Program-made: the position numbers and the translations under genes
The notes under the pieces: generated by a model
Databases searched by the model: none
Told to the model about the DNA's origin: nothing
Seen by the model: the letters and a program-made list of their open reading frames with translations, nothing else
Part shown: one piece after another, positions 1 through 37,217 of the stretch
Numbering within the stretch: the stretch's first letter is position 1
Layout of the letters: every line of letters begins with the position of its first letter
Assembly (NCBI GenBank): GCA_964457475.1
Contig: CAYWEK010000001.1
Span: 1-52,224, forward strand
Length of the DNA stretch: 52,224 nucleotides
Reading direction: 5' to 3'
From: Candidatus Woesearchaeota archaeon
Lineage (GTDB): Archaea; Nanobdellota; Nanobdellia; Pacearchaeales; GW2011-AR1

Positions 1-1925
1 TAAACAACACAAATATAATCTATAATGTAACTTTAAGCTTAACAAATATTGGCGGGAGTAATGCCACGAATGTGAATATAACTGACTCTGATTCAACAAA
101 TTATAATATTGGGACTTTGATTGCCGGTCAAACAATAACTGAAAGTTATCTTGTGACTCTTAACAGAGGCGTTTATTTGACAATGCATTCTTTGAGCATT
201 GCAACTGCAAATGGAACTGATTCTATAAGTAATAATCTGATTCAAGTGAACTCAAGCCAGATTTCTGTCGTAATTCCGGCATTGAATAACCCTGCTTCTT
301 TCGTCTTAAGTAAAATAGCTAGTTTCGATAATGTGACGAACACAACAATCAGTTACAACGTAACATTAATACTTACAAATAATGGGGGCAGTAATGCAAC
401 GAATGTGAATATAACTGACTCTGATTCAGTTTCAAGCCCTTACATAATAGGAAGCTTAAATCAAAGTCAGGTAGTTACTGAGAGTTATATAGAAACATTC
501 AATAGGAATTCAACAACCTATTTCTCTCCTTTATCTGTAGCTCAAGTATTAGGAATTGATTCTTATAATAATGCTGTAATAGCTGCTAATTCAACTCAGA
601 GCAATGTTACGATTCCTATGACAAATACTGGACAGCAGTTAACTGTAATTAAGAATGATTACTATAACTCAGAGAACGTAACATCTGTTAATTATACTTT
701 AAGTGTTCAAGTCGTTAATTCTGGAGGTATTGACTTGAGTGGAATCGTCATTAATGATCAAGATCTTAATTTACTGACTACTCAATCTATAAACAGAAGC
801 CAAGCTTATGCTTATTCTGGATCGTTAATTATTAGCAAAGCAGCATCAAACTCAGAACACAACTTTTTCAAAACTACTGCAACTGCAAATTCTACGCAAT
901 ATGATTCTAATCAAATTGGAATTCTAATTCCAGGATATGGCGGACCAGCAGATACTTTAGTTTATTCGCCTGCTTCTGTAGATACTTTATCAAATTTTGA
1001 TTCTGTAATAGAAATAAAGAATCAAAACCCTGATGTTGGACAAAATTTCTTATTAGACTATTGGATAACGAGTAATGATGGTAATACTAATTATACCTCG
1101 AGTGAAGAAACTTTGTACATCGCTGCATCTTCATCCATTAATGTAACGGTAACTCTTACTTCTCCAGATTCTCCCGGGATTTATAAACTTATGGCCTTGG
1201 TAAATTATATTGGTGGGCCAGATATGGCTTTTGATAGCTTTGAAGTTAATAATCCTTCGCCTCCTGAAATCTCTTCTGGGAGCGCAAGTTTGAATGGAGG
1301 AGGTCCAGTCAATCTCACTCAGAAATATAATTGTAATATGTCATACATCTTATACGAGAATGAGTGTTGTTTGGATCAAAATAATGACAGTATTTGTGAC
1401 AAATATGAAACTCAAAAACTAAAAATACAAAATAAAAATCAAACAGAAAATTATAATAGCTCAGAACAAAACTCTTCTCAAAATAATATTTTTTATGAAT
1501 CAGTTAAGACCCTATTCTCTGATATTTCTATTATATATCAGTCATTTAAGGACAAGATAGATTATCAGATTTTGGTAAGTGTTATCTTAATACTCATAAT
1601 TTCCATTTTAATTATAGCTAATAGAAAGATAATACTTAATATCTTTAAAATCCATAGATTATTATGTATTTTCTTAAGCAAGAATAAAAAATATCCAATA
1701 AATAGCCTTAATGATTTAATAGGTAAGAAGATATATTCTGAAGATGGAAATTATGTCGGAAATGTCATTGATGTAACATTAGAAGAAAACAAGATTGATA
1801 GCCTTAAAGTGAAAATAGACAAGAATAATCCATTTGGAACAAGAGGGATAATTATTAAGTATAAACATGTTATTGGTGTTGGCGAAGTAGTGTTTATTGA
1901 TGAATCAATTTCTAAGCATATTTAA
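1..1925 (+). CDS. Surface protein (5' partial): tandem CARDB/DUF11-like repeats, Cys cluster, one TM helix, C-terminal PRC-barrel-like domain
   Basis: The reading frame is open from nt 3, and the upstream codons give NTNIIYNVTLSLTNIGGSNATNVNITDSDS, another copy of the internal repeat. There are at least 3 copies of a ~111-aa unit. Other elements are CNMSY..ECCLDQNNDSICD, a TM segment ILVSVILILIISILIIA, and a tail GKKIYSEDGNYVGNVIDVTLEENKIDSLKV typical of PRC barrels. Confidence 0.6.
   Translation, partial: NNTNIIYNVTLSLTNIGGSNATNVNITDSDSTNYNIGTLIAGQTITESYLVTLNRGVYLTMHSLSIATANGTDSISNNLIQVNSSQISVVIPALNNPASFVLSKIASFDNVTNTTISYNVTLILTNNGGSNATNVNITDSDSVSSPYIIGSLNQSQVVTESYIETFNRNSTTYFSPLSVAQVLGIDSYNNAVIAANSTQSNVTIPMTNTGQQLTVIKNDYYNSENVTSVNYTLSVQVVNSGGIDLSGIVINDQDLNLLTTQSINRSQAYAYSGSLIISKAASNSEHNFFKTTATANSTQYDSNQIGILIPGYGGPADTLVYSPASVDTLSNFDSVIEIKNQNPDVGQNFLLDYWITSNDGNTNYTSSEETLYIAASSSINVTVTLTSPDSPGIYKLMALVNYIGGPDMAFDSFEVNNPSPPEISSGSASLNGGGPVNLTQKYNCNMSYILYENECCLDQNNDSICDKYETQKLKIQNKNQTENYNSSEQNSSQNNIFYESVKTLFSDISIIYQSFKDKIDYQILVSVILILIISILIIANRKIILNIFKIHRLLCIFLSKNKKYPINSLNDLIGKKIYSEDGNYVGNVIDVTLEENKIDSLKVKIDKNNPFGTRGIIIKYKHVIGVGEVVFIDESISKHI
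57..428 (+). repeat. Intragenic tandem repeat, period 333 nt (111 aa), inside the surface protein gene
   Basis: The 39-nt block agtaatgc[c/a]acgaatgtgaatataactgactctgattca occurs at 57-95 and 390-428 with one mismatch. The flanking repeat sequence is much more diverged. A third, diverged unit follows ~333 nt later (SVNYTLSVQVVNSGGIDLSGIVINDQD). Confidence 0.8.
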
Positions 1926-27118: not shown

Positions 27119-27295
27119 ATGAAAAAGGGGCAGAAGGATAAGCTGACAGTCCTGATTGATAGAAATATAAAGGAAAAATACCGCGTATTTTGTGACTTGC
27201 GCGGGCTAATTCTCGGCAAGCAAATAGAATTGTTTATGGAAAGAGAGCTGGAAAAGATAGAAAAAGGAGATAGAAGTGGTGAACGGAAAAAATAA
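27119..27295 (+). CDS. Small ribbon-helix-helix (CopG/ParG-like) DNA-binding protein, 58 aa (below the ORF-track cutoff)
   Basis: My own translation is MKKGQKDKLTVLIDRNIKEKYRVFCDLRGLILGKQIELFMERELEKIEKGDRSGERKK. It has a beta-strand followed by two helices in the RHH pattern. Its 3' end overlaps the next gene by 20 nt. Confidence 0.5.
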   Translation: MKKGQKDKLTVLIDRNIKEKYRVFCDLRGLILGKQIELFMERELEKIEKGDRSGERKK

Positions 27296-28040
27296 AAGAG
27301 GGCAGATAGCGATATGGATAATAATCGCGATTGTGATCGTAGCAGTAATTTTTATGCTTTTCCTACTAAACAAAAGCCCGACAACGATTACACAAGGTCA
27401 ATATGACTTCCAAAGCTCAATAGAAAAATGTGTCAGAGATGCAACAAGCAATGCCATCGATGTAATGATTCCTCAGGGGGGTTTTCTGCAGCCAGAGAAT
27501 TACAAGCTATACAATAATATCAATGTTACATTTTTGTGTCAAAATACTGGATATTTCAAACCATGTATCAATCAACATCCTTTGTTAATTAATGAGGAAA
27601 TCAATGAAATTGAGAATTATACGACACCAATAATAAATAATTGCTTTTCAAGCGCTCAAAGTGAACTTGAAAGTAGAAATTATGGCGTTTCCATAAGCCC
27701 GATTTCACTAAATGTTTCTTTCGGTTCTGGTAGAGTCTACACCCTTATCGTCACAAATGTAACGATAAGTAAAAATGGGCAAACGCAAACATATGATAAC
27801 TTCAATGTAGAATTGAATAGCCCGATATATGATTTAAGTAAGGTTGCGATGGATATAACTAATAACGAGGCCAAGTACTGCTATTTTGAATATGTAGGAT
27901 ATATGCTTCTTTATCCAAGGTGGCAGATATCTAAATTTACTTTCTCAGATTCGACAAAAATATATACTATAGAAGATCTACAATCAAAGAAGGAGATGAA
28001 TATAGCCGTAAGAGGATGCGCTATACCTCCAGGAATTTAA
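27276..28040 (+). CDS. Pilin-like secreted protein A1 (class III signal peptide)
   Basis: GTG start preceded by AAGGAGA. The N-terminus is MVNGKNKRGQIAIWIIIAIVIVAVIFMLFLL (basic residues, then G, Q, then a hydrophobic helix). It is a paralog of 31943-32710. Confidence 0.6.
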   Translation: MVNGKNKRGQIAIWIIIAIVIVAVIFMLFLLNKSPTTITQGQYDFQSSIEKCVRDATSNAIDVMIPQGGFLQPENYKLYNNINVTFLCQNTGYFKPCINQHPLLINEEINEIENYTTPIINNCFSSAQSELESRNYGVSISPISLNVSFGSGRVYTLIVTNVTISKNGQTQTYDNFNVELNSPIYDLSKVAMDITNNEAKYCYFEYVGYMLLYPRWQISKFTFSDSTKIYTIEDLQSKKEMNIAVRGCAIPPGI

Positions 28041-28041
28041 A

Positions 28042-31000
28042 ATGAGGGAAGAAAAAACCGAAAAAAATATTTATTTTTCAGTAATTCTAGAGATGTCTCT
28101 GATGATAGGGATGATTTTTGCAATTTCTTATATGATGGGGCAATATTCTCCTAACGGAACTATGATTATCCAATATAATTCATATGCTATTAATCCTGAT
28201 GCTATATTTTTGAAAGCTCTTGGAATATTTGACAAAATTGTGTTTGGCAACACTGGTTTTGCTTCCGCATTATCACAAAGTGACTTGACGAGTGGGGCAT
28301 ATACTTGCCCTATCGATAAGAATGGTTCAATCTGCCAGCAATATACTGCAAGTGACTGCGCAGCGAACTGCGCTGTTGACTGTCTTCCTACAACAGCAGA
28401 CCAAACTTCTCAATGTAAAATAGGAACATGTTATGATCCTGTGCAGGGAACGTGCCAAATAGGGGCGCCTCAAGTTGCGTGCCAACAGGACGGTGGGCAA
28501 TGGTTCAATGATCCTAATGGAAATGTGGCGCAATGTAAACCTGGATGTTGTCTCCTTGGTAGTAATGCATATTTTGAGACTTCACAACAATGTTCGCATG
28601 ATTCTAATGTAACTGGTCTAACGGAGGATTTTAGACCCGAAGTCAGCACTGAACTCGCATGCCTTGCATTATCACAAACACAAGTACAAGGAGCTTGCGT
28701 AATTGCATCTAATACGCAAAATTCTTGTAAGTTCACAACACAGGTTAATTGCGAACAAGATTTAGGTGGAAAATTTTATCCTAACTTATTATGCTCCAAT
28801 AACGCGTTAAACACAGGTTGTAAATCACAGGCAACAATTGGATGTGTACAGGGTAAAGACGAAGTTTATTGGTTTGATTCATGTGGAAATCAGGAGAATA
28901 TTTATGATGCAAATAAAGTCAAAAGTTATAACAATGGAATGATTCTTTCAAAAAATTCCGCCTGTTCGCTTGCCAGCGGAAATAATTTGCTTGCTAATCA
29001 AGCCACGTGTGGAAATTGCAATTTTGTTCTTGGAAGCATATGTGGAGCCAGTACAAATACACAAAAACTTTCTGAGCCGAATGCAAATGTAGTCTGCAAA
29101 GACTTATCATGTGTTGATGCAGATGGACAAAAAAGAGTAAATGGAGAGTCCTGGTGTGCATATCAAGGTTCAACAGGAACTGCCGCAGGAGCAGGAGGAT
29201 TTTTGAGATCTACAGACACTGTTGGAAGTAGAGATTTCAGGGAAACGTGCATAAACGGACAAATAGAAACAGACCAGTGTGCTGATTATAGAAATGAAAT
29301 CTGTGTTGAGTCGCAAACAAGCACTCCCAATACTCCCACTGGTAAAATATCTTCTGCCGCATGTAGAATAAATCTGGGTTATGAATGTTATGATTACAAT
29401 AAAAATAATGACATGAACAGTTGTAAGCAAAACCCTGATTGTTTCGTGAAAAGTGTTCAAGTATCAGGAAGTTTTAATTTTAATATTTGCGCTCCCAAAT
29501 ATGTTCCTGGTTTTGACTTAACTCAAAGAGGTACTGGAGCGGCTGCAATCTGTTCAATAGCTAATCAACAATGCCAAGTCGTTTATGTCAAAGAACTTTT
29601 TGGAGGATGGCAATGCAAAGCAAATTGTGAATGCCAAACTTCATCATTTGCGGAACAAATGAATGATTTATGTATCTCATTAGGAGATTGCGGAACAAAA
29701 GTAAATTATATTGGAGATTTAACGAAAAATGAACATGTTTTCAAGAGCACTAGTAAGGATAGTCTTGGAAATGAAGTTGGAGCAAGCAGTGGAGATTTAA
29801 GCAATAATTATGTTAATGGGTTGGTGAAATATGCTGATGAGAATTTGTTCAAGAATCAGTATATACAAGCATCAGATATATCTTCGCTGTATGGAAATAT
29901 CGGAATTCCTGGATGGCTTGGACAGGCTCAGTCTCCTACAGATCCAACCGCCGGCGTTACCGGAGAACTTTCCATGATATCTGGGATGGTTGGAATTTTA
30001 GTTCTTGCAGCGGCGCATACGAGTATAGGATTAGCATCACTTGGAGCTCTTAGTAGCGCTGTGGCCCAACCAACTGAAATAGGTCAGGTAACTGGCACCG
30101 GAGCTTATGGGCTAACTCCCGCGGCATCTGCAGCGTTCGGCGCAATAGGCGGCGCCACTTTAGGATTAGCTTTAGTTTCTTTCTTGATTGACTTCACAGG
30201 AATAGGAAAGGGCTTACCTCCAGCTGTGACTTATTCTTTAATGGCGGTGGGAGCGACTGCTGGAGGAATAATAGGGGCAAATATAGCTGCTGGCGGAGGA
30301 TTAGGAAGCTTTAGCGCTGCCTGGACAAGCTTGGCATTCTTATCTGCCCTTTCTGTTGTACTGATTGCTATTGTGATTATAGCAATAATAGTCTTATCAT
30401 TACTTGGAATTGGTGATACAAAAACAGTCTATTACTCTTTTGAATGTGATCCATGGCAAGCTCCTAATGGTGGAGCAAAATGCGATCAGTGTGGAAAAGA
30501 TGGATTCCCATGCTCGCAATATTCCTGCCAAAGTCTTGGCCAAAACTGCCAACTAATCAATGAAGGTAGCGCAAATCCTGCATGTGTTAATATTAATCCA
30601 AATGATACTAGCTCACCAGTAATAACTCCTGCAACAAATCTCTTGCCTGATGGATATACTGCACAGCAAACACAGAATGGAGTAAAAATCACAACTTCCA
30701 ATGGTGGATGTCTGACTGAAAATTACCAACAAATACCTTTTGGAATCAATCTTAATAAATATGGACAGTGCAAAATAGACACGGAGCATACTGCATCATT
30801 TGATGATATGCAACAACCACTTGATTCAGGACTTTATCTCGAAAACCATAGTCTTCCATTAGTTATACCTAGTCTTGAAAGCCTTGGAGTTCAAAGCTTT
30901 AATCCAAATGCGACTGCTGATTATAATATTTATTTGAGATGCCAGGACAAATCAGGAAATACGAATACAAATGAGTATGATATAAACTTCTGCATAGCTC

Positions 31001-31920
31001 CTGGTAATGATACAACTCCTGCAGCAATAACATATTCTGATCCTTCAACAAAAACTCTTGCTTTTAATACAACAAGTATTAACGCATCTGTTTACACAAG
31101 CGAACCGGCAAATTGCAACTGGGACACTAAAGATACAGACTATAATTTGATGGCAAATAACTTTAGTTGCGCAACTGATTTTGCACAGAGAACATTATAT
31201 GGATGGAAATGTAATGCTCTTCTTCCTTTCTCTGGAAATTCAACTACGTATTATGTTAGATGTCTTGACCAACCTTGGTTGACTGGGGATAATGCGACAA
31301 AGAGAAATGCAAACACCCAGAGTTATCCTCTAACTTTCACACGTAGTTCAAAAGCATTAAACATAGACTCTATAAATGTTGATGGCAAAAATTTAAGTTT
31401 TGGAGTTGCCCCAGCAAGTGTTGAAGTTGATGTCAAAACATCTGGTGGATTAGATGGCACTGCTGAATGTGCCTATGTTTGGGGAAATTCAACCATTGAC
31501 TTTTTCAGCACATTGAGCACAAGTCACAGCCAAGTATTTCAGACTTTATATCCTGGGGAAATAACTCTTCCAATAATATGCACCGATTCTGTGGGCAACG
31601 TTGCGCAGAAAACAGCACATTTCAATATCCTTCTAGATACAACTCCGCCGATAATAACAAGAATCTATTCTCAATCTGGACAACTCAATATAATAACCGA
31701 TGAACAATCAACATGCTATTATAGTAATGATGATAGTCAAAAATGTCTTTTCGATATAAGCAATGCGAGCATCTTTAACGGGATTTATACAAATGATCAT
31801 AGTATAAACTTTGACACAAGTCAAGTGTATTATGTAAAATGTAAAGATAAAATTGGAAATTATCCTGGAACATGCAGCACAATAGTAAGAGAGGGGAATT
31901 ATGATTCGCAACAATTATAA
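28042..31920 (+). CDS. Giant cysteine-rich surface/membrane protein B1C1 (1292 aa), no family recognised
   Basis: N-terminal signal anchor, a Cys-dense ectodomain (nt ~28290-29725), a Gly/Ala-rich hydrophobic block (~29960-30420), a Cys knot (CDPWQAPNGGAKCDQCGKDGFPCSQYSCQSLGQNCQ) and four repeats delimited by TTPP-like linkers. The N-terminal half is paralogous to 32712-34256 and the C-terminal half to 35025-37217. Confidence 0.7.
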   Translation: MREEKTEKNIYFSVILEMSLMIGMIFAISYMMGQYSPNGTMIIQYNSYAINPDAIFLKALGIFDKIVFGNTGFASALSQSDLTSGAYTCPIDKNGSICQQYTASDCAANCAVDCLPTTADQTSQCKIGTCYDPVQGTCQIGAPQVACQQDGGQWFNDPNGNVAQCKPGCCLLGSNAYFETSQQCSHDSNVTGLTEDFRPEVSTELACLALSQTQVQGACVIASNTQNSCKFTTQVNCEQDLGGKFYPNLLCSNNALNTGCKSQATIGCVQGKDEVYWFDSCGNQENIYDANKVKSYNNGMILSKNSACSLASGNNLLANQATCGNCNFVLGSICGASTNTQKLSEPNANVVCKDLSCVDADGQKRVNGESWCAYQGSTGTAAGAGGFLRSTDTVGSRDFRETCINGQIETDQCADYRNEICVESQTSTPNTPTGKISSAACRINLGYECYDYNKNNDMNSCKQNPDCFVKSVQVSGSFNFNICAPKYVPGFDLTQRGTGAAAICSIANQQCQVVYVKELFGGWQCKANCECQTSSFAEQMNDLCISLGDCGTKVNYIGDLTKNEHVFKSTSKDSLGNEVGASSGDLSNNYVNGLVKYADENLFKNQYIQASDISSLYGNIGIPGWLGQAQSPTDPTAGVTGELSMISGMVGILVLAAAHTSIGLASLGALSSAVAQPTEIGQVTGTGAYGLTPAASAAFGAIGGATLGLALVSFLIDFTGIGKGLPPAVTYSLMAVGATAGGIIGANIAAGGGLGSFSAAWTSLAFLSALSVVLIAIVIIAIIVLSLLGIGDTKTVYYSFECDPWQAPNGGAKCDQCGKDGFPCSQYSCQSLGQNCQLINEGSANPACVNINPNDTSSPVITPATNLLPDGYTAQQTQNGVKITTSNGGCLTENYQQIPFGINLNKYGQCKIDTEHTASFDDMQQPLDSGLYLENHSLPLVIPSLESLGVQSFNPNATADYNIYLRCQDKSGNTNTNEYDINFCIAPGNDTTPAAITYSDPSTKTLAFNTTSINASVYTSEPANCNWDTKDTDYNLMANNFSCATDFAQRTLYGWKCNALLPFSGNSTTYYVRCLDQPWLTGDNATKRNANTQSYPLTFTRSSKALNIDSINVDGKNLSFGVAPASVEVDVKTSGGLDGTAECAYVWGNSTIDFFSTLSTSHSQVFQTLYPGEITLPIICTDSVGNVAQKTAHFNILLDTTPPIITRIYSQSGQLNIITDEQSTCYYSNDDSQKCLFDISNASIFNGIYTNDHSINFDTSQVYYVKCKDKIGNYPGTCSTIVREGNYDSQQL

Positions 31921-31942
31921 ATACGAGTCTTCTCGGATATTC

Positions 31943-32710
31943 ATGCGAGGCAAAAAGGGGCAAATAGCGATATTTGTTATAATAGCAATAGTGATTGTTG
32001 CTATAATCCTGCTCATTGTTTTTTATCCAAGACTTCCTTCTATCACCCAAGGAGCTGAGCTTTCACCTGTTTCTTTTCTTGCAAGTTGCATTCAACCAGA
32101 TCTGAAAACTGATGTTGCTTTGCTTGGTGGCACTGGGGGTTATGCAACACCTGATGCATATCTTGAATATCAAGGAGCTAAAATACAATATTTGTGTTAT
32201 ACTGCTGAAGACTATAAGACCTGTGTTGTGCAACAGCCACTTATAAAAGAAAATTTTGAAAGACAATTAAATACTTTGATAAAAAGTAAAGTTAGCGGAT
32301 GCGTACAAAGTTTGAATCAGGAATATACTAATCAAGGATATCAAGTCACTATAGGAAATGTTGATAGTCAGACAAGCATAAATCCTGGAGACATTCTAAT
32401 ATCAATAACTGCACCTATGACTGCTACAAAGTCTGGAGTGACAAAGAGTTTCACCGGATTCAATGTTGAAGTACCAAGTAAGATGTATGACTTGTTGATG
32501 ATAGCAACAAGCGTAATCGATTATGAATCAACACTTGGAGACTCTGAAACAACACTTTATGTTCAATACTATCCTAATTTGGTGATGCAAAAAATAAGAC
32601 TTGATGATGGCAGTAAAGTTTATAGCCTGACTGATGTTACAACTAATGAAAGTTTTAGATTTGCCTCGAGAAGCCTAGTATGGCCTCCAGGATATGGAAC
32701 AACTACGTAA
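31943..32710 (+). CDS. Pilin-like secreted protein A2 (class III signal peptide)
   Basis: MRGKKGQIAIFVIIAIVIVAIILLIVFY. The shared Cys pattern (C..LC....YK.C..Q.PL) and the C-terminal WPPGY/IPPGI match A1. The tracked start at 31901 would overlap the upstream gene; I prefer Met15. Confidence 0.6.
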   Translation: MRGKKGQIAIFVIIAIVIVAIILLIVFYPRLPSITQGAELSPVSFLASCIQPDLKTDVALLGGTGGYATPDAYLEYQGAKIQYLCYTAEDYKTCVVQQPLIKENFERQLNTLIKSKVSGCVQSLNQEYTNQGYQVTIGNVDSQTSINPGDILISITAPMTATKSGVTKSFTGFNVEVPSKMYDLLMIATSVIDYESTLGDSETTLYVQYYPNLVMQKIRLDDGSKVYSLTDVTTNESFRFASRSLVWPPGYGTTT

Positions 32711-32711
32711 A

Positions 32712-34256
32712 ATGAAAGTAAAAATTAAAAATCTTGGACTAAGAATTACTTTATTAATCAGTTTAGTACTCTTTGTTTCTGTTTTTAGTACTTATTTTAC
32801 TTTGGCAGATAGTCTGAACCAGACAGTTTGTTGTGAAAAAACAACTTCTAATTTATATTGTCAAAATGTTCCAGCAAGTCAGTGCGCTTCTGGATCAAGG
32901 CAAGTGCCAACTTCATGTTCATCAACTTCATTCTGCAATCCTGGAACATGTTACAATTCTGTGCAAGGAACATGTCTTCAAAATACACCACAAATAACCT
33001 GCAATGCAAATGGTGGAATATGGTCTGCACAAAGTCCACCTCAGTGTAATCTTGGATGTTGCCTTCTTGGAGACCAAGCAGCTTATGTGACATTAACAAG
33101 ATGTAAATATCTTTCATCTTCCCTTGGCTTGCAAACAAATTATGATCCTAGCATAACAAGTGAAACTGCTTGTATACAGCAAGTCCAAGGTCAGGATCAA
33201 GGCGCATGTGTTTATACTTCATCCGACTTGCAAACAACATGCAAGTTTACAACTAGAGCACAGTGTAATCTCGGATTTAATGATACTAACACTGCACAAA
33301 CACCACAATTCTATAAGGATACCTTGTGCACAGCTCCAGTTCTTGGCACTAATTGCGCTCCTACTACAAAGACTACTTGCGTTCCAGGTAAAGATGGAGT
33401 TTATTTCGTTGATACATGCGGTAACCCTGCAAATATTTATGATGCATCAAAAATAAATGACCAAGAGTATTGGACTAATGTTAAAACTATCACACAATCA
33501 TGCAGCCCTAACTCAGGAAATTCGAACTCTCAGACATGTGGAAACTGTAATTATCTTCAGGGAAGTATCTGTAGACAATCATCATCAAGTACTGCTAAGC
33601 CAAGCTATGGAAATTATATTTGTCAGGACTTAAATTGTCAACAAACTTCTGATGGTAAGTCTTACAAACAGGGAGAATCATGGTGCGTTTATACTGATTC
33701 GGGATCTCAAAACACTGGCAATAATGCTGTGGGAAGTGAGTTCTACAAACATATATGTGAAAATGGACAAGAAATTCTTGAGCAATGTTCTGGATTTAGG
33801 CAAGAGGTTTGTCTTCAGGGAAGTATACAAACATCTTCAGGATTGTTTTCGCAGGCAGCATGTAGAGTAAATAGATGGCAAGATTGCACTGCACAAACAA
33901 ATCAACAGGATTGCCAGAATACTGATAAAAGAGATTGTCTTTGGGAAAATGGAGTAGGACTTAATGGTTCAACTGGGGGAGCATGTATCCCACAATACAC
34001 TCCAGGTTTGCAATTCTGGAGCGGTAGTGATGCTCAAAATATATGTGCGCAAGGAAACGCGCAATGTATAGTTACATTTGAAAAAGGTTTGTTTGGTGGA
34101 GAGACATGTAAGTCAAATTGTGACTGTTTAACATCTGACTGGCAGAAACAGAGAATACAAGTGTGCGAGGCACTTGGTGATTGTGGACCAAAGGTAAACT
34201 GGATAGGCCAGCAAGGATATGGTTCTGGTTATAATATAACAACAAGTAGCGCCTAA
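32712..34256 (+). CDS. Cysteine-rich secreted protein B2 (paralog of the N-terminal half of the 1292-aa protein)
   Basis: Signal peptide MKVKIKNLGLRITLLISLVLFVSVFSTYFTLA. About 43 Cys by hand count. Collinear anchors with B1 include GTCYNSVQGTC, GCCLLGDQAAYVT, CGNCNYLQGSIC, GESWCVY and LGDCGPKVNWIG. The tracked start is 32694. Confidence 0.7.
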   Translation: MKVKIKNLGLRITLLISLVLFVSVFSTYFTLADSLNQTVCCEKTTSNLYCQNVPASQCASGSRQVPTSCSSTSFCNPGTCYNSVQGTCLQNTPQITCNANGGIWSAQSPPQCNLGCCLLGDQAAYVTLTRCKYLSSSLGLQTNYDPSITSETACIQQVQGQDQGACVYTSSDLQTTCKFTTRAQCNLGFNDTNTAQTPQFYKDTLCTAPVLGTNCAPTTKTTCVPGKDGVYFVDTCGNPANIYDASKINDQEYWTNVKTITQSCSPNSGNSNSQTCGNCNYLQGSICRQSSSSTAKPSYGNYICQDLNCQQTSDGKSYKQGESWCVYTDSGSQNTGNNAVGSEFYKHICENGQEILEQCSGFRQEVCLQGSIQTSSGLFSQAACRVNRWQDCTAQTNQQDCQNTDKRDCLWENGVGLNGSTGGACIPQYTPGLQFWSGSDAQNICAQGNAQCIVTFEKGLFGGETCKSNCDCLTSDWQKQRIQVCEALGDCGPKVNWIGQQGYGSGYNITTSSA

Positions 34257-34317: not shown

Positions 34318-34971
34318 ATGAAAATAGGTAAACATTTAGGAATTGCAGGTTTAGTTACTGCCGGAACTATTTTGAGTGGGTGCGATGCTACTATGCGAGA
34401 AGATGGTGCAAATGTCTTAGACAATCTAGCAAACAGAGTAGTTACTGGAGGAGCAGTATATGATGCTAATTCACAAATTCAGGCAAACCAAGGCAATTAC
34501 AGAGCCGCTGCAGCGTGGGGCGCACTTGCAGAAACTGCACAAAATGACTACAATAGGCAAACAGCTATAGATGCTGCTGAGGCTGGAAGAAGCGATATAA
34601 CTATCAATAATTATCCTTCCCAGAAGAATAGGCAGATAGATTTAATTCTTTGTTATTGGAAAGACATGAACAATAATGGTAAAATTGATTTAAATGAAAT
34701 TTCTATAAGAAAAACTTTTTATGCTCCTGCAAATGTAACTATATTGGATACAAGTACGGTTACTATTCCATACAACGTTGATATTAAATTATTCAAAGAT
34801 GCAGACGTATTAAGTATAAAAGAAATGCGTTTGAATGGACTTACTCATGACGGTTTCTCGGAAATCTCTGCGCTGACATTTTATGGTCTGACAGATGGTT
34901 ATTACTCTGCTGAGTGCTCTGTTAATGGCGAAATAATCAAAGAATTGACATTTAATGTTGTAAATGAATGA
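34318..34971 (+). CDS. Putative lipoprotein (217 aa)
   Basis: Lipobox-like N-terminus MKIGKHLGIAGLVTAGTILSGC. It has its own TATA (gtttaaatat) centred 26 nt upstream of the ATG. Confidence 0.6.
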   Translation: MKIGKHLGIAGLVTAGTILSGCDATMREDGANVLDNLANRVVTGGAVYDANSQIQANQGNYRAAAAWGALAETAQNDYNRQTAIDAAEAGRSDITINNYPSQKNRQIDLILCYWKDMNNNGKIDLNEISIRKTFYAPANVTILDTSTVTIPYNVDIKLFKDADVLSIKEMRLNGLTHDGFSEISALTFYGLTDGYYSAECSVNGEIIKELTFNVVNE

Positions 34972-35024: not shown

Positions 35025-37217
35025 ATGAGGAAAGGGCTGAAAAAGAGGTTCGTTTATTTTGGAGTTATTGCGCAAATCTTTCTTATGATTTCATTCAGTT
35101 TTACTCTTTCTTTTATCATAAATAATAATTTTGTTAATGCTGCAATTGATAATACTAATTTGGCTCTTGATAATCCTAGTGGAACAGGCATATCTACTAC
35201 GGCTGGGCTTGGTGGCGTTTCCGACTTCAACGGTTTTAACGGTCCGTATAATGGACTAGCTAATCAAATATTGCCTCCTCCAGCAGCTATAAATCCAGTC
35301 TCTGGATCCGCACCTATAATAGTATCACATGCAAATGGATATACTCCTTATCAATTACCTGGAGGTTTAGGCACTATTAGTAATCCTCTTCTTGGGCATC
35401 TTGCTCAAGGACTTGTTTGGGCCGGACTTGTTGCCGGAGCTATTCAATTATTAGGTGCTTTTGGTCTAGGAAAAGGAACAACTAATGCATTGACTATTTC
35501 TGCAGTTGGAGGCATTCTTGCTGGACAAGCCGTAACTGGAGCCTTTCAAAGCGGCTATCTAAACTCATTAGTGGCAGGTAATGGAAAATTTTTTGGATTG
35601 TTTAAGACTGCTGGACAGGCAGGCTTTGCAGTAGGAGCAGTAGTCGCAATAGCACTTTTCATCGCAACTTATTCATCCCAAACTAAAAAAATGGTGAACT
35701 TTCAATGCCTTCCTTTCCAACCAGCTCTTGGCGGCTCGCAATGCCAGAAGTGCAATAATAATCCTTTCGAGCCATGTACTGAATATAGATGCAGAGCACT
35801 AGGACAGGCATGTCAGCTACTAAATGCTGGAAGCAATGATCAACAGTGTGCGTGGGTAAGTCCAAATGATGTAGCTGCACCAACTATAACTCCATGGAAT
35901 GACGCGCTTTCCCCTACTGGATTAAAGTATACTCCTGATACTGCTGTAAATCCTCCGGCAATTGGAACGAAAATAGTTACATCTGGTGGAGGATGTCTTC
36001 CTGCTTTCACACCATTACAATTCGGTATTACTACGAATGAACCTGCACAGTGCAAAATAGATTATAATCATACTGCAAACTATAGTGATATGCAATATTA
36101 TTTTGGAGGAAGCAATTATTTTGATTACAATCATACTGAAATATTATCATTGCCCGGTCCAAATACTGGAAATAATTCTATTGCTCCAGCATTACAAAAT
36201 AATGGTCAATTCTCTCTTTATGTGAGGTGTATGGATGCAAATGGAAATACAAACGTTGCTGAATATGCATTCGCATTCTGTGTTGATCAAGGACCGGACA
36301 CAACTCCTCCAGTAATAGAAGGTTCTTCAATACCATCTGGAAGTTATGTTGGATATGGACAAAGCAATGTGCCTATAGAATTATACACGAATGAGCCGGC
36401 TACTTGTAACTGGGACACTCAAGATAAAGATTATGATTCTATGGCTAATAACATGACTTGTACAACACAAAGTTACCAAGTAAATGCAAATCTACAATAT
36501 ACATGTTTTGGAAATCTTACTGGAATTCAAAATAATAAAGATAATACTTTCTACTTTAGATGCAAGGATCAGCCTGACAAGCCTGATAATCAGAGAAATG
36601 TTGATGTACAAAGTACAACTATTGTATTGAAGGGGAGCCAACCTTTAGTGATTCTTTCTGCTGCACCAAATGGAACTATAACTGGAAGTACGGATACAAT
36701 ACCTGTTAATCTACAGCTTGAAACAAGTGCTGGAGCAACTGGGGATGGTAATTCAACATGTTCATTCTCTTCAACAGGACAAAATGACAGCTATGTCGCG
36801 ATGTTCCAGACAGATAGCTTTACACACAGTCAGACACTTAACCTAGCTACAGGAGATTATACATATTATTTCAGATGCATAGATTCTGGAGGAAACGCTG
36901 CGGAAACCAACACGACTTTCAGTGTGTCTGTTGATACTCAGCCTCCAATAGTAACAAGAGTATACAAGCAGGATGCATTGAAGATAGTCACAAATGAGAA
37001 CGCCCAATGTAGCTATTCTCTTACTTCCTGTAACTTTAATATAGCTGATGGGATAAAGATGATATATTCGAATCCAGACATACAGAATAATCTATTTGCT
37101 GAATGGAAATCAAGCCAGACATATTATATAAGATGCATGGACTTGTATGGAAATGAACCTGCTCCAAATCAATGTAGCATAATTGTAAGTCCTGTTACAA
37201 TAAGCGGAGCTCAATAG
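35025..37217 (+). CDS. Membrane/surface protein C2 (paralog of the C-terminal half of the 1292-aa protein)
   Basis: Signal anchor, a Gly/Ala-rich hydrophobic block (~35390-35680), a Cys knot (CLPFQPALGGSQCQKCNNNPFEPCTEYRCRALGQACQ) and four repeats (NEPATCNWDTQDKDYDSMANN, YYFRCIDSGGN, DTQPPIVTRVY, YYIRCMDLYGN). It has its own TATA 25 nt upstream. Confidence 0.7.
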   Translation: MRKGLKKRFVYFGVIAQIFLMISFSFTLSFIINNNFVNAAIDNTNLALDNPSGTGISTTAGLGGVSDFNGFNGPYNGLANQILPPPAAINPVSGSAPIIVSHANGYTPYQLPGGLGTISNPLLGHLAQGLVWAGLVAGAIQLLGAFGLGKGTTNALTISAVGGILAGQAVTGAFQSGYLNSLVAGNGKFFGLFKTAGQAGFAVGAVVAIALFIATYSSQTKKMVNFQCLPFQPALGGSQCQKCNNNPFEPCTEYRCRALGQACQLLNAGSNDQQCAWVSPNDVAAPTITPWNDALSPTGLKYTPDTAVNPPAIGTKIVTSGGGCLPAFTPLQFGITTNEPAQCKIDYNHTANYSDMQYYFGGSNYFDYNHTEILSLPGPNTGNNSIAPALQNNGQFSLYVRCMDANGNTNVAEYAFAFCVDQGPDTTPPVIEGSSIPSGSYVGYGQSNVPIELYTNEPATCNWDTQDKDYDSMANNMTCTTQSYQVNANLQYTCFGNLTGIQNNKDNTFYFRCKDQPDKPDNQRNVDVQSTTIVLKGSQPLVILSAAPNGTITGSTDTIPVNLQLETSAGATGDGNSTCSFSSTGQNDSYVAMFQTDSFTHSQTLNLATGDYTYYFRCIDSGGNAAETNTTFSVSVDTQPPIVTRVYKQDALKIVTNENAQCSYSLTSCNFNIADGIKMIYSNPDIQNNLFAEWKSSQTYYIRCMDLYGNEPAPNQCSIIVSPVTISGAQ

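Follow-up and report, generated by a model that had tools for sequence, protein, structure and literature searches.

Glycine zippers were reportedly described by Kim et al. in 2005 for the helices of channel-forming proteins, among them VacA and MscS. A Gly/Ala-rich hydrophobic block with a few conserved zippers is the subject of the present analysis. The block occurs twice in a stretch of archaeal DNA (the window), comprising the 52,224 nucleotides at positions 1 to 52,224 of contig CAYWEK010000001.1 (assembly GCA_964457475.1, Candidatus Woesearchaeota archaeon). For the Pacearchaeota and Woesearchaeota, lineage-specific membrane or extracellular modules without functional prediction have been reported (Castelle et al. 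2021, PMC8204110), and our literature searches returned no description of the family treated here. One copy of the block lies in a protein of 1292 amino acids (p1292, fused type), between a Cys-rich ectodomain (B) and an ectodomain with a Cys-knot and an immunoglobulin (Ig)-like part (C). The other copy precedes the C domain of a protein of 730 amino acids (p730, split type). With moderate confidence we read the block as a Gly/Ala-rich hairpin anchor in the archaeon's own cytoplasmic membrane, which contains an embedded zipper helix and probably has a role in assembly.

The block of p1292 comprises amino acids 640-793 (154 residues, translated from window positions 29960-30420) and that of p730 amino acids 122-219 (98 residues, 35390-35680). 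The former consists of 18 % A, 17 % G, 14 % L, 11 % I and 10 % S with 5 charged residues, the latter of 19 % G, 18 % A and 14 % L with 3 charged residues; Gly, Ala and Ser together make up 43-45 % of both. An initial annotation of this DNA, made from the sequence alone, had already placed Gly/Ala-rich hydrophobic blocks here, and all peptide strings quoted in it were found in the translations. Its description of the block as dominated by small-xxx-small repeats holds only for some zippers that are conserved in the family, e.g. G737xxxG741xxxG745, while the spacing as such mostly follows from composition. When three stretches of the blocks were each compared with 2000 sequence shuffles, small-xxx-small pairs were not significantly enriched (p = 0.32, 0.18 and 0.08), and triple zippers gave p = 0.065-0.13. 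The sole outlier among these tests was GxxxG in residues 693-787 of p1292 (6 observed, 2.2 expected, p = 0.006). As the pairs are not significantly enriched over the shuffles, the zipper appearance of the blocks is mostly a by-product of their 45 % small residues.

The zippers that can be regarded as genuine are those kept family-wide, as judged from alignments of 111 split-type and 79 fused-type homologues. Four helices of the block in p1292 are called Ha to Hd and three in p730 H1 to H3 (Table 1). In the fused family the conserved zippers are G704xxxG708 and G737xxxG741xxxG745, and each position of the latter is Gly in at least 70 % of the homologues. The split family conserves G129xxxA133, A155xxxS159xxxG163 and G204xxxA208, with a small residue in at least 85 % of the homologues at each of A155, S159 and G163. 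Both the glycine triplet and its split-type counterpart lie on helices predicted by AlphaFold2. Fixed glycines are G648, G651, G704, G708, G720, G737, G741, G745, G789 and G791 in the fused family and G129, G144, G147, G163 and G204 in the split family, in which positions 133, 155, 159 and 208 also hold small residues. Charged residues are almost absent throughout the block in both alignments. If a zipper is defined as a (G/A/S)xxxGxxxG that lies on a helix predicted to be in the membrane and that is kept in the homologues, both blocks contain one. Conservation thus points to one genuine GxxxGxxxG, on Hc; the equivalent helix H2 has AxxxSxxxG, and the flanking helices have GxxxG/A. The retention of the block in the 111 split-type and 79 fused-type homologues, together with its predicted helices, confirms that it is not a product of chance.

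The family is large. A word-index search brought up over 600 relatives of p730 with 48-69 % identity, annotated as 'hypothetical' proteins, and 98 homologues of the fused type were found; named homologues come from metagenome bins of Pacearchaeota and Nanoarchaeota. Of the 13 genomes sampled from the same taxonomic family, 12 encode such proteins, as do 92 of the 301 sampled from the phylum (E ≤ 1e-10), and two or three copies in one genome are frequent. At one further locus (L005) the double module is syntenic, with the order regulator, A1, fused B-C, A2, B2, a variable gene, C2 and Hjc, in which A denotes the pilin-like partner proteins.

The block itself was followed by a phmmer search of the p730 block alone against 1.84 billion representative proteins, which gave 30 matches. 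The matches that were read through are members of the same family or fragments at contig edges, except for a tandem-repeat protein (P0232), which looks spurious and was rejected as a relative. Since these matches belong, with that one exception, to the same family, the block does not appear to be a shared module and is seen in no other family. Searches of Pfam, NCBIfam and PDB sequences with the whole proteins and with the blocks alone returned nothing above noise. Using hmmscan at E up to 10, the p730 block gave only sub-threshold hits (MtrF 0.025, ThrE 0.33, DUF6332 1.3) and the p1292 block no match, although very weak matches may be hidden by the HMMER filters; Gly-zipper_Omp, Gly-zipper_YMGG, Rick_17kDa_Anti and Transgly_assoc matched neither block at this cut-off. 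The best PDB hit of the blocks was a TAL effector repeat protein with a non-significant E = 0.0035. Scanning the longer family members for diagnostic domains such as a C-terminal sorting signal revealed only Big_13/DUF4625.

AlphaFold2 was run on single chains with family alignments, p1292 being modelled over amino acids 1-1200. The mean predicted local distance difference test score (pLDDT) was 84.2 for p730 and 81.7 for p1292. In p730, the N-terminal transmembrane (TM) helix TM0 and the helices H1, H2 and H3 reached pLDDT 85-93, and amino acids 36-108 (pLDDT < 50) were predicted to form a disordered linker. In p1292, Hb, Hc and Hd reached pLDDT 66-88, Ha was modelled as a helix with a pLDDT of only ~34, and residues 626-698 were predicted to be disordered. 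Comparison of the consensus GxGL...YxLxxAGAxxGAxxG with GLD...TNALxxAAxxGIxxGK equates Hb, Hc and Hd with H1, H2 and H3. Because of this correspondence, the conserved core unit consists of three helices, with Ha as a weak extra found only in the fused form, where it is probably non-spanning or else a fourth span. A derivation of Ha from a TM0-type helix, which a likeness seen by eye (ELSMISGMVG / EMSLMIGMIF) had suggested, was dropped since the family consensus lends it no support.

Hydrophobicity was expressed as a crude Hessa-scale sum of the insertion free energy (dG), given in Table 1 as family medians. H3/Hd are more hydrophobic than H1/Hb, H2/Hc lie well below Hd, and Ha is the weakest helix of the fused family; Hd of p1292 itself has a dG of -5.8. 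None of the helices has a polar face or amphipathic character (hydrophobic moment ≤ 0.21), and for H2 a role as amphipathic surface helix was ruled out by its moment of ≤ 0.2. The block is helical and apolar and hence most likely embedded in the membrane.

Which side of the membrane the flanks of the block are on was examined by several routes. That both flanks, B and C, are extracellular is supported by composition, by the Ig/FN3 fold, by conserved sequons and by relatives in which A, B and C follow a single signal helix. The C domain contains 4.5-5.2 % K+R and 35 % S+T+N+Q, equal to B, while cytoplasmic proteins of the window mostly have ~13-20 % K+R. Genome-wide, an N-terminal hydrophobic segment is present in 77 of 100 open reading frames (ORFs) with low K+R and in 20 of 311 other ORFs. 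Foldseek matched p730 to tandem Ig/FN3 ectodomains and a bacterial grappling-hook protein, and each C repeat has paired invariant cysteines. The sequons N369-H-T/S (36129-36137) and N549-x-T with a variable middle residue (36669-36677) are kept in 107 and 105 of the 111 split members, respectively; these N-x-S/T sites of the p730 C domain are candidate N-glycosylation sites. The B domains, for their part, are depleted of sequons (z about -2). Stand-alone C-domain genes with a signal peptide of their own, which would have served as a natural test of topology, were also considered, and the candidates turned out to be artefacts, caused by masked N positions in G250 and by the end of a contig in G180.

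The weak matches of the phylum-wide search included nine distant relatives (L011-L018 and L020) that are single A-B-C chains of 1058-1305 amino acids, e.g. 1123 in L011 and 1272 in L013. Each combines an A-like domain with the C-terminal half of B and with C (BLAST E ~1e-8 to 1e-26 per domain). In eight of the nine, a class III pilin-type helix forms the N-terminus (MKKRGQVSYF..., MIKRKKGQITLF..., MLEKRGQITSF...; motif [KR][GA]Q[IV](T/A).F). These eight chains have no other hydrophobic segment, and in particular none between B and C; in the ninth, L020, no TM-like segment is seen, and its start was apparently placed at an internal Met. As one N-terminal helix is the only hydrophobic segment of these chains, C shares the side of A and B, i.e. 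the outside. A single-chain relative could be regarded as, in effect, a giant pilin-headed surface protein, and since relatives encode A, B and C as one chain, the three gene products of the module in the window are tied functionally.

The block is present where A is a separate adjacent gene (twice in the window, and in L005, L007, L019 and L022) and absent where A is fused to B and C. Among the more distant members with a block, L019 carries a contiguous pair of Gly/Ala-rich helices ahead of the Cys-knot, L023, which is of the split type, has TM0 and two helices, and in L022 a short middle segment containing Lys lies between two strong helices. Because the A-B-C single chains have none, the block is dispensable for the A-B-C system and lineage-specific. 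The initial annotation had called the block the most mechanistically suggestive part of the module; with relatives that lack it altogether and others that have only a two-helix hairpin, we do not regard it as the mechanistic core.

In the hairpin anchor that we favour, the helix bundle would hold the C ectodomain at the membrane; in the fused type it would do the same for the C-terminal end of B. H1/Hb would cross from outside to inside, and H3/Hd would cross back, delivering the Cys-knot and the Ig-like stalk to the surface. The zipper helix H2/Hc would not span fully; it would sit towards the cytoplasm as a buried or re-entrant element, and Ha in the fused type would be weak, peripheral and probably non-spanning. 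The two helices of L019 and L023, and the two helices with a short middle segment in L022, match a hairpin with an accessory helix. The conserved small-xxx-small faces would pack the helices of the block tightly within the hairpin. We infer that these faces probably also dock the pilin-type helix of A, the TM0 helices and the paralogous block. Such docking would re-create non-covalently the A-B-C unit that is made as one chain in the relatives, and the block would take over the anchoring provided by the pilin helix in the single-chain form.

Several observations weigh against this arrangement. The conserved sequences YKKEKKK (split) and GKTKK (fused) follow directly after the last helix, on the presumed outer side, so that an anchor with both flanks outside departs from the positive-inside rule. 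H2/Hc is 25-27 residues long, uniformly apolar with a moment of ≤ 0.2, and looks like a full span; three full spans would place the C domain in the cytoplasm. In the fused family Hc is nearly as hydrophobic as Hb (median dG +2.5 vs +1.5), so that a four-span solution including Ha is possible there. Furthermore, the signal helix of p730 together with the three helices gives an odd count. The number of helices predicted in the block is 4 in p1292 (one at pLDDT ~34), 3 in p730 and 2 in the distant relatives. It had been argued that an even number of passes is needed to keep both Cys-rich flanks outside the cell. The outer location of the flanks is supported, but p730 with three helices after its signal helix can comply only if one of them, H2 in our reading, does not span. 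Likewise, the block of p730 had been called equivalent to that of p1292; the helices do correspond, but the odd count after the signal helix and the Lys-rich flank contrary to the positive-inside rule qualify the equivalence. In favour of the model, K/R residues in the H1-H2 loop and at position 168 of H2 fit a cytoplasmic middle segment.

In p1292 residues 793-802 are modelled as a strand with pLDDT ~96, and the Lys-rich segment is the first beta-strand of the C domain, which would therefore sit directly on the membrane surface. The Lys-rich motif (35673-35702 and 30415-30447) might instead interact with the head groups of anionic lipids or mark a site of processing. At locus L003, a gene for a subtilisin-like S8 peptidase lies directly downstream of this motif's gene.

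Two other arrangements in the cell's own membrane were weighed. Copies of the block, or the fused and the split paralogue together, could assemble via GxxxGxxxG into an oligomeric glycine-zipper channel gated or capped by the ectodomains. The conservation of GxxxGxxxG in Hc and of AxxxSxxxG in H2 would agree with a channel, as would the weak hydrophobicity of the helices, which is often found in pore-lining zipper helices. Fused and split copies also lie side by side in L005, and many sampled genomes have two or three copies. However, a polar or charged face that is conserved is absent from all helices (moment ≤ 0.21), no significant match in Pfam or PDB was obtained, and the system works without the block in the single-chain relatives or with a two-helix hairpin. 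The pore proposed in the initial annotation is on these grounds unlikely.

Alternatively, three full spans (four with TM0) could leave C inside, so that the protein would form a receptor-like transmembrane link from B or the linker on the outside to an Ig-like chain in the cytoplasm. Three apolar spans of ~21 residues, each bounded by polar residues, would suit this topology, and the Lys-rich flank and the K/R-bearing H1-H2 loop would all be inside, a perfect positive-inside fit. Yet homologous C domains stand behind a single N-terminal signal helix in the A-B-C relatives, and the exported-class composition, paired invariant cysteines, conserved sequons and adhesin-like fold of C all speak for the outside. 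Moreover, the fused protein, with Ha counted, would have the opposite parity. We consider a cytoplasmic C domain improbable for these reasons. A naive topology predictor may nevertheless return 'C inside', a result that the initial annotation had named as contrary to its view, although homology puts C outside; such a prediction would be an artefact or the sign of an unusual mode of insertion.

A host-directed element, inserting into a membrane in the manner of a fusion peptide, is very unlikely in our estimation. Here TM0 and the linker would serve as a tether, and the helices of the block would enter the host membrane to attach or bridge the two cells. The 40-230 residues of disordered tether between TM0 and the block would be suited to this task, the Lys-rich flank and the odd number of helices would make sense relative to a target membrane, the organisms are thought to be episymbionts (PMC8204110), and Gly/Ala-rich apolar segments resemble viral fusion peptides in composition. 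On the other hand, a charge-free stretch of ~95-155 residues that no amphipathic helices shield would be insoluble; Hd (dG -3 to -7) would be expected to enter the producer's own membrane through the translocon; the block is placed between B and C and not at the distal tip; and the sequences of C and the block are unusually conserved for a host-specific weapon. The more specific form of this idea, a dedicated archaeal device for cell-cell attachment or fusion whose block enters or bridges the host membrane by three helices, so that the odd helix count and the Lys-rich flank would comply with the positive-inside rule for that membrane, is given even less credence. Finally, an extracellular low-complexity linker without a membrane role, which the richness in Gly, Ala and Ser and the disorder predicted for residues 626-698 of p1292 and 36-108 of p730 might suggest, can practically be dismissed, since the AlphaFold2 helices of the core are confident, apolar and nearly charge-free family-wide with invariant glycines at fixed positions, and the disordered-linker outcome raised against the membrane block at the outset does not apply.

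The coordinates of the features are compiled in Table 1.

Table 1. Features of the locus, with window positions, strand, the basis of each assignment and, for the block helices, the family median of the crude Hessa-scale dG.
Feature	Window position	Strand	Basis	Median dG
A1, pilin-like partner, class III signal KRGQIAIW...	27276..28040	+	ORF; in-frame fusion to B and C in distant relatives	
p1292, fused B-C: N-terminal TM helix, Cys-rich B ectodomain, block, Cys-knot and Ig-like C ectodomain	28042..31920	+	ORF	
TM0' of p1292 (aa 3-34), N-terminal signal/anchor helix, motif (E/Q)I.LL	28048..28143	+	AlphaFold2 helix, family consensus qI.lli...fafsY	
Ha (aa 638-658), weak hydrophobic helix, conserved G648 and G651 only	29953..30015	+	AlphaFold2	+3.8 (best 19-residue stretch)
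Hb (aa 693-719), equivalent to split H1, G704xxxG708	30118..30198	+	AlphaFold2, conservation, dG	+1.5
Hc (aa 727-751), equivalent to split H2, G737xxxG741xxxG745, among the less hydrophobic helices	30220..30294	+	AlphaFold2, conservation, dG	+2.5
Hd (aa 761-787), equivalent to split H3, strongly hydrophobic, predicted span	30322..30402	+	AlphaFold2, dG	-3.2
Lys-rich juxtamembrane segment of p1292, consensus GKTKK..V.F.C	30415..30447	+	family consensus, AlphaFold2	
A2, second pilin-like partner, KKGQIAIF...	31901..32710	+	ORF; distant relatives	
B2, stand-alone Cys-rich ectodomain protein, N-terminal helix, without block	32694..34256	+	ORF	
p730, split C protein: TM0, variable linker, three-helix block, Cys-knot and Ig-like domains	35025..37217	+	ORF	
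TM0 of p730 (aa 6-33), signal/anchor helix, motif QIFLL.S.SFA.AF...VSA	35040..35123	+	conservation, AlphaFold2	
Variable linker of p730 (aa 34-120), predicted disordered	35124..35384	+	AlphaFold2	
H1 (aa 121-144), G129xxxA133 and G144..G147 conserved	35385..35456	+	AlphaFold2, conservation, dG	+3.3
H2 (aa 150-176), least hydrophobic helix, A155xxxS159xxxG163, family-conserved Lys 168	35472..35552	+	AlphaFold2, conservation, dG	+4.9
H3 (aa 196-216), conserved G204xxxA208, F212, Y216	35610..35672	+	AlphaFold2, conservation, dG	+1.4
Lys-rich flank of p730 leading into the Cys-knot, consensus YKKEKKK.V.F	35673..35702	+	family conservation	

The N-terminal helices of the B-C, B and C proteins (28048-28143, 32694-32810 and 35040-35123) share the motif (E/Q)I(F/L)L(L/V).S..F. 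Its polar E/Q lies near the cytoplasmic end, and its conservation is unusual for a mere signal peptide, which suggests that the helix is retained and packs with something. An assignment of these helices as class III signals was rejected, since they lack a [KR][GA] motif with constant spacing to the conserved E/Q. Between TM0 and the block, the linker comprises 40 to 230 residues across the aligned family; in a remote member (P0240) it has ~450 residues, looks partly folded and is rich in Lys and Glu.

A1 and A2 show the characteristics of archaeal type IV pilin-like proteins, namely a short basic N-terminus, a [KR][GA] motif and a hydrophobic helix, with a prepilin peptidase encoded in the genome (Peptidase_A24, 46.2 bits, above the cut-off; contig 4, 23924-24256, - strand). 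A T2SSF-type platform protein (contig 3, 24083-25181, - strand) and a T2SSE-type (type IV pilus-type) ATPase (contig 3, 26477-27100, - strand) were also identified, so that this pilus machinery lies entirely on other contigs and none of it in the window. The A proteins therefore do have a machinery for their processing and assembly. The source assembly comprises 0.70 Mb and is 84 % complete.

The window has a GC content of ~34 % and encodes an archaeal Hjc resolvase. Between B2 and C2 lies a gene for a lipoprotein-like protein of 217 amino acids (34318-34971, + strand), for which no counterpart was detectable at the syntenic locus L005; there, an unrelated gene for 264 amino acids occupies its place, and the position is thus variable. 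At L003 (the P0042 locus), a beta-helix (NosD-like) protein of 961 amino acids and two small ORFs precede the C-type gene, which is followed by an S8 peptidase/NosD protein, and no recognisable A or B genes lie upstream of the C-type gene. The partners of C appear to be exchangeable. A further ORF of the window (72-1925, + strand; 617 amino acids) has an exported-type composition and 24 sequons where 14.3 are expected (z = 3.2), and it may encode an S-layer-type glycoprotein.

Overall, the block belongs to a large, well-conserved and so far undescribed surface module of Pacearchaeota-type DPANN archaea. The module consists of a pilin-like A, a Cys-rich B and a Cys-knot/Ig-like C component. The occurrence of a single pilin-headed chain in some lineages and of A next to a block-anchored B-C in others links the components functionally. 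The same comparison fixes the membrane side of the C domain, and it identifies the part that can be omitted from expression constructs or exchanged for a generic anchor. Furthermore, the family is a natural case of conflict between the positive-inside rule and homology-based topology and should be useful as test material for topology predictors.

Among known systems, the class I viral fusion peptides share with the block only the composition of their short apolar Gly/Ala-rich segments. In contrast, the domain order puts the block inside the chain and ahead of beta domains, not at an N-terminus created by cleavage; no partner with heptad repeats or a coiled coil was noticed, the block consists of three to four consecutive helices over ~95-155 residues, and no homology was detected. 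With type IV pilin-like proteins the module is connected through the A partners and the single-chain relatives, which have the class III motif and a hydrophobic helix. The block, however, is internal, multi-helical and Gly/Ala-rich, is not preceded by a class III cleavage motif and is not a pilin helix. With the transmembrane glycine-zipper and GxxxG packing motifs, as in the glycophorin-A-type dimer, VacA and MscS, it has in common small-xxx-small motifs on apolar, weakly hydrophobic, Gly-rich helices and one true family-conserved (G/A)xxxGxxxG (G737/G741/G745). It differs in that it has no sequence relationship to any described zipper family, in that its zipper is the middle helix of a proposed hairpin anchor dispensable in relatives, and in that its overall small-xxx-small spacing does not significantly exceed the expectation from composition. 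The modules reported for Pacearchaeota and Woesearchaeota (PMC8204110) come from the same organisms and are likewise made up of hypothetical proteins located in the membrane or outside the cell. Helical-hairpin anchors share two apolar helices, a short loop and two large flanks outside, and L019 and L023 have exactly this minimal form; in the window a third, zipper helix lies between the arms and a Lys-rich flank follows on the presumed outer side. We would thus regard the block as a lineage-specific form of such an anchor, and the surrounding surface system as itself undescribed.

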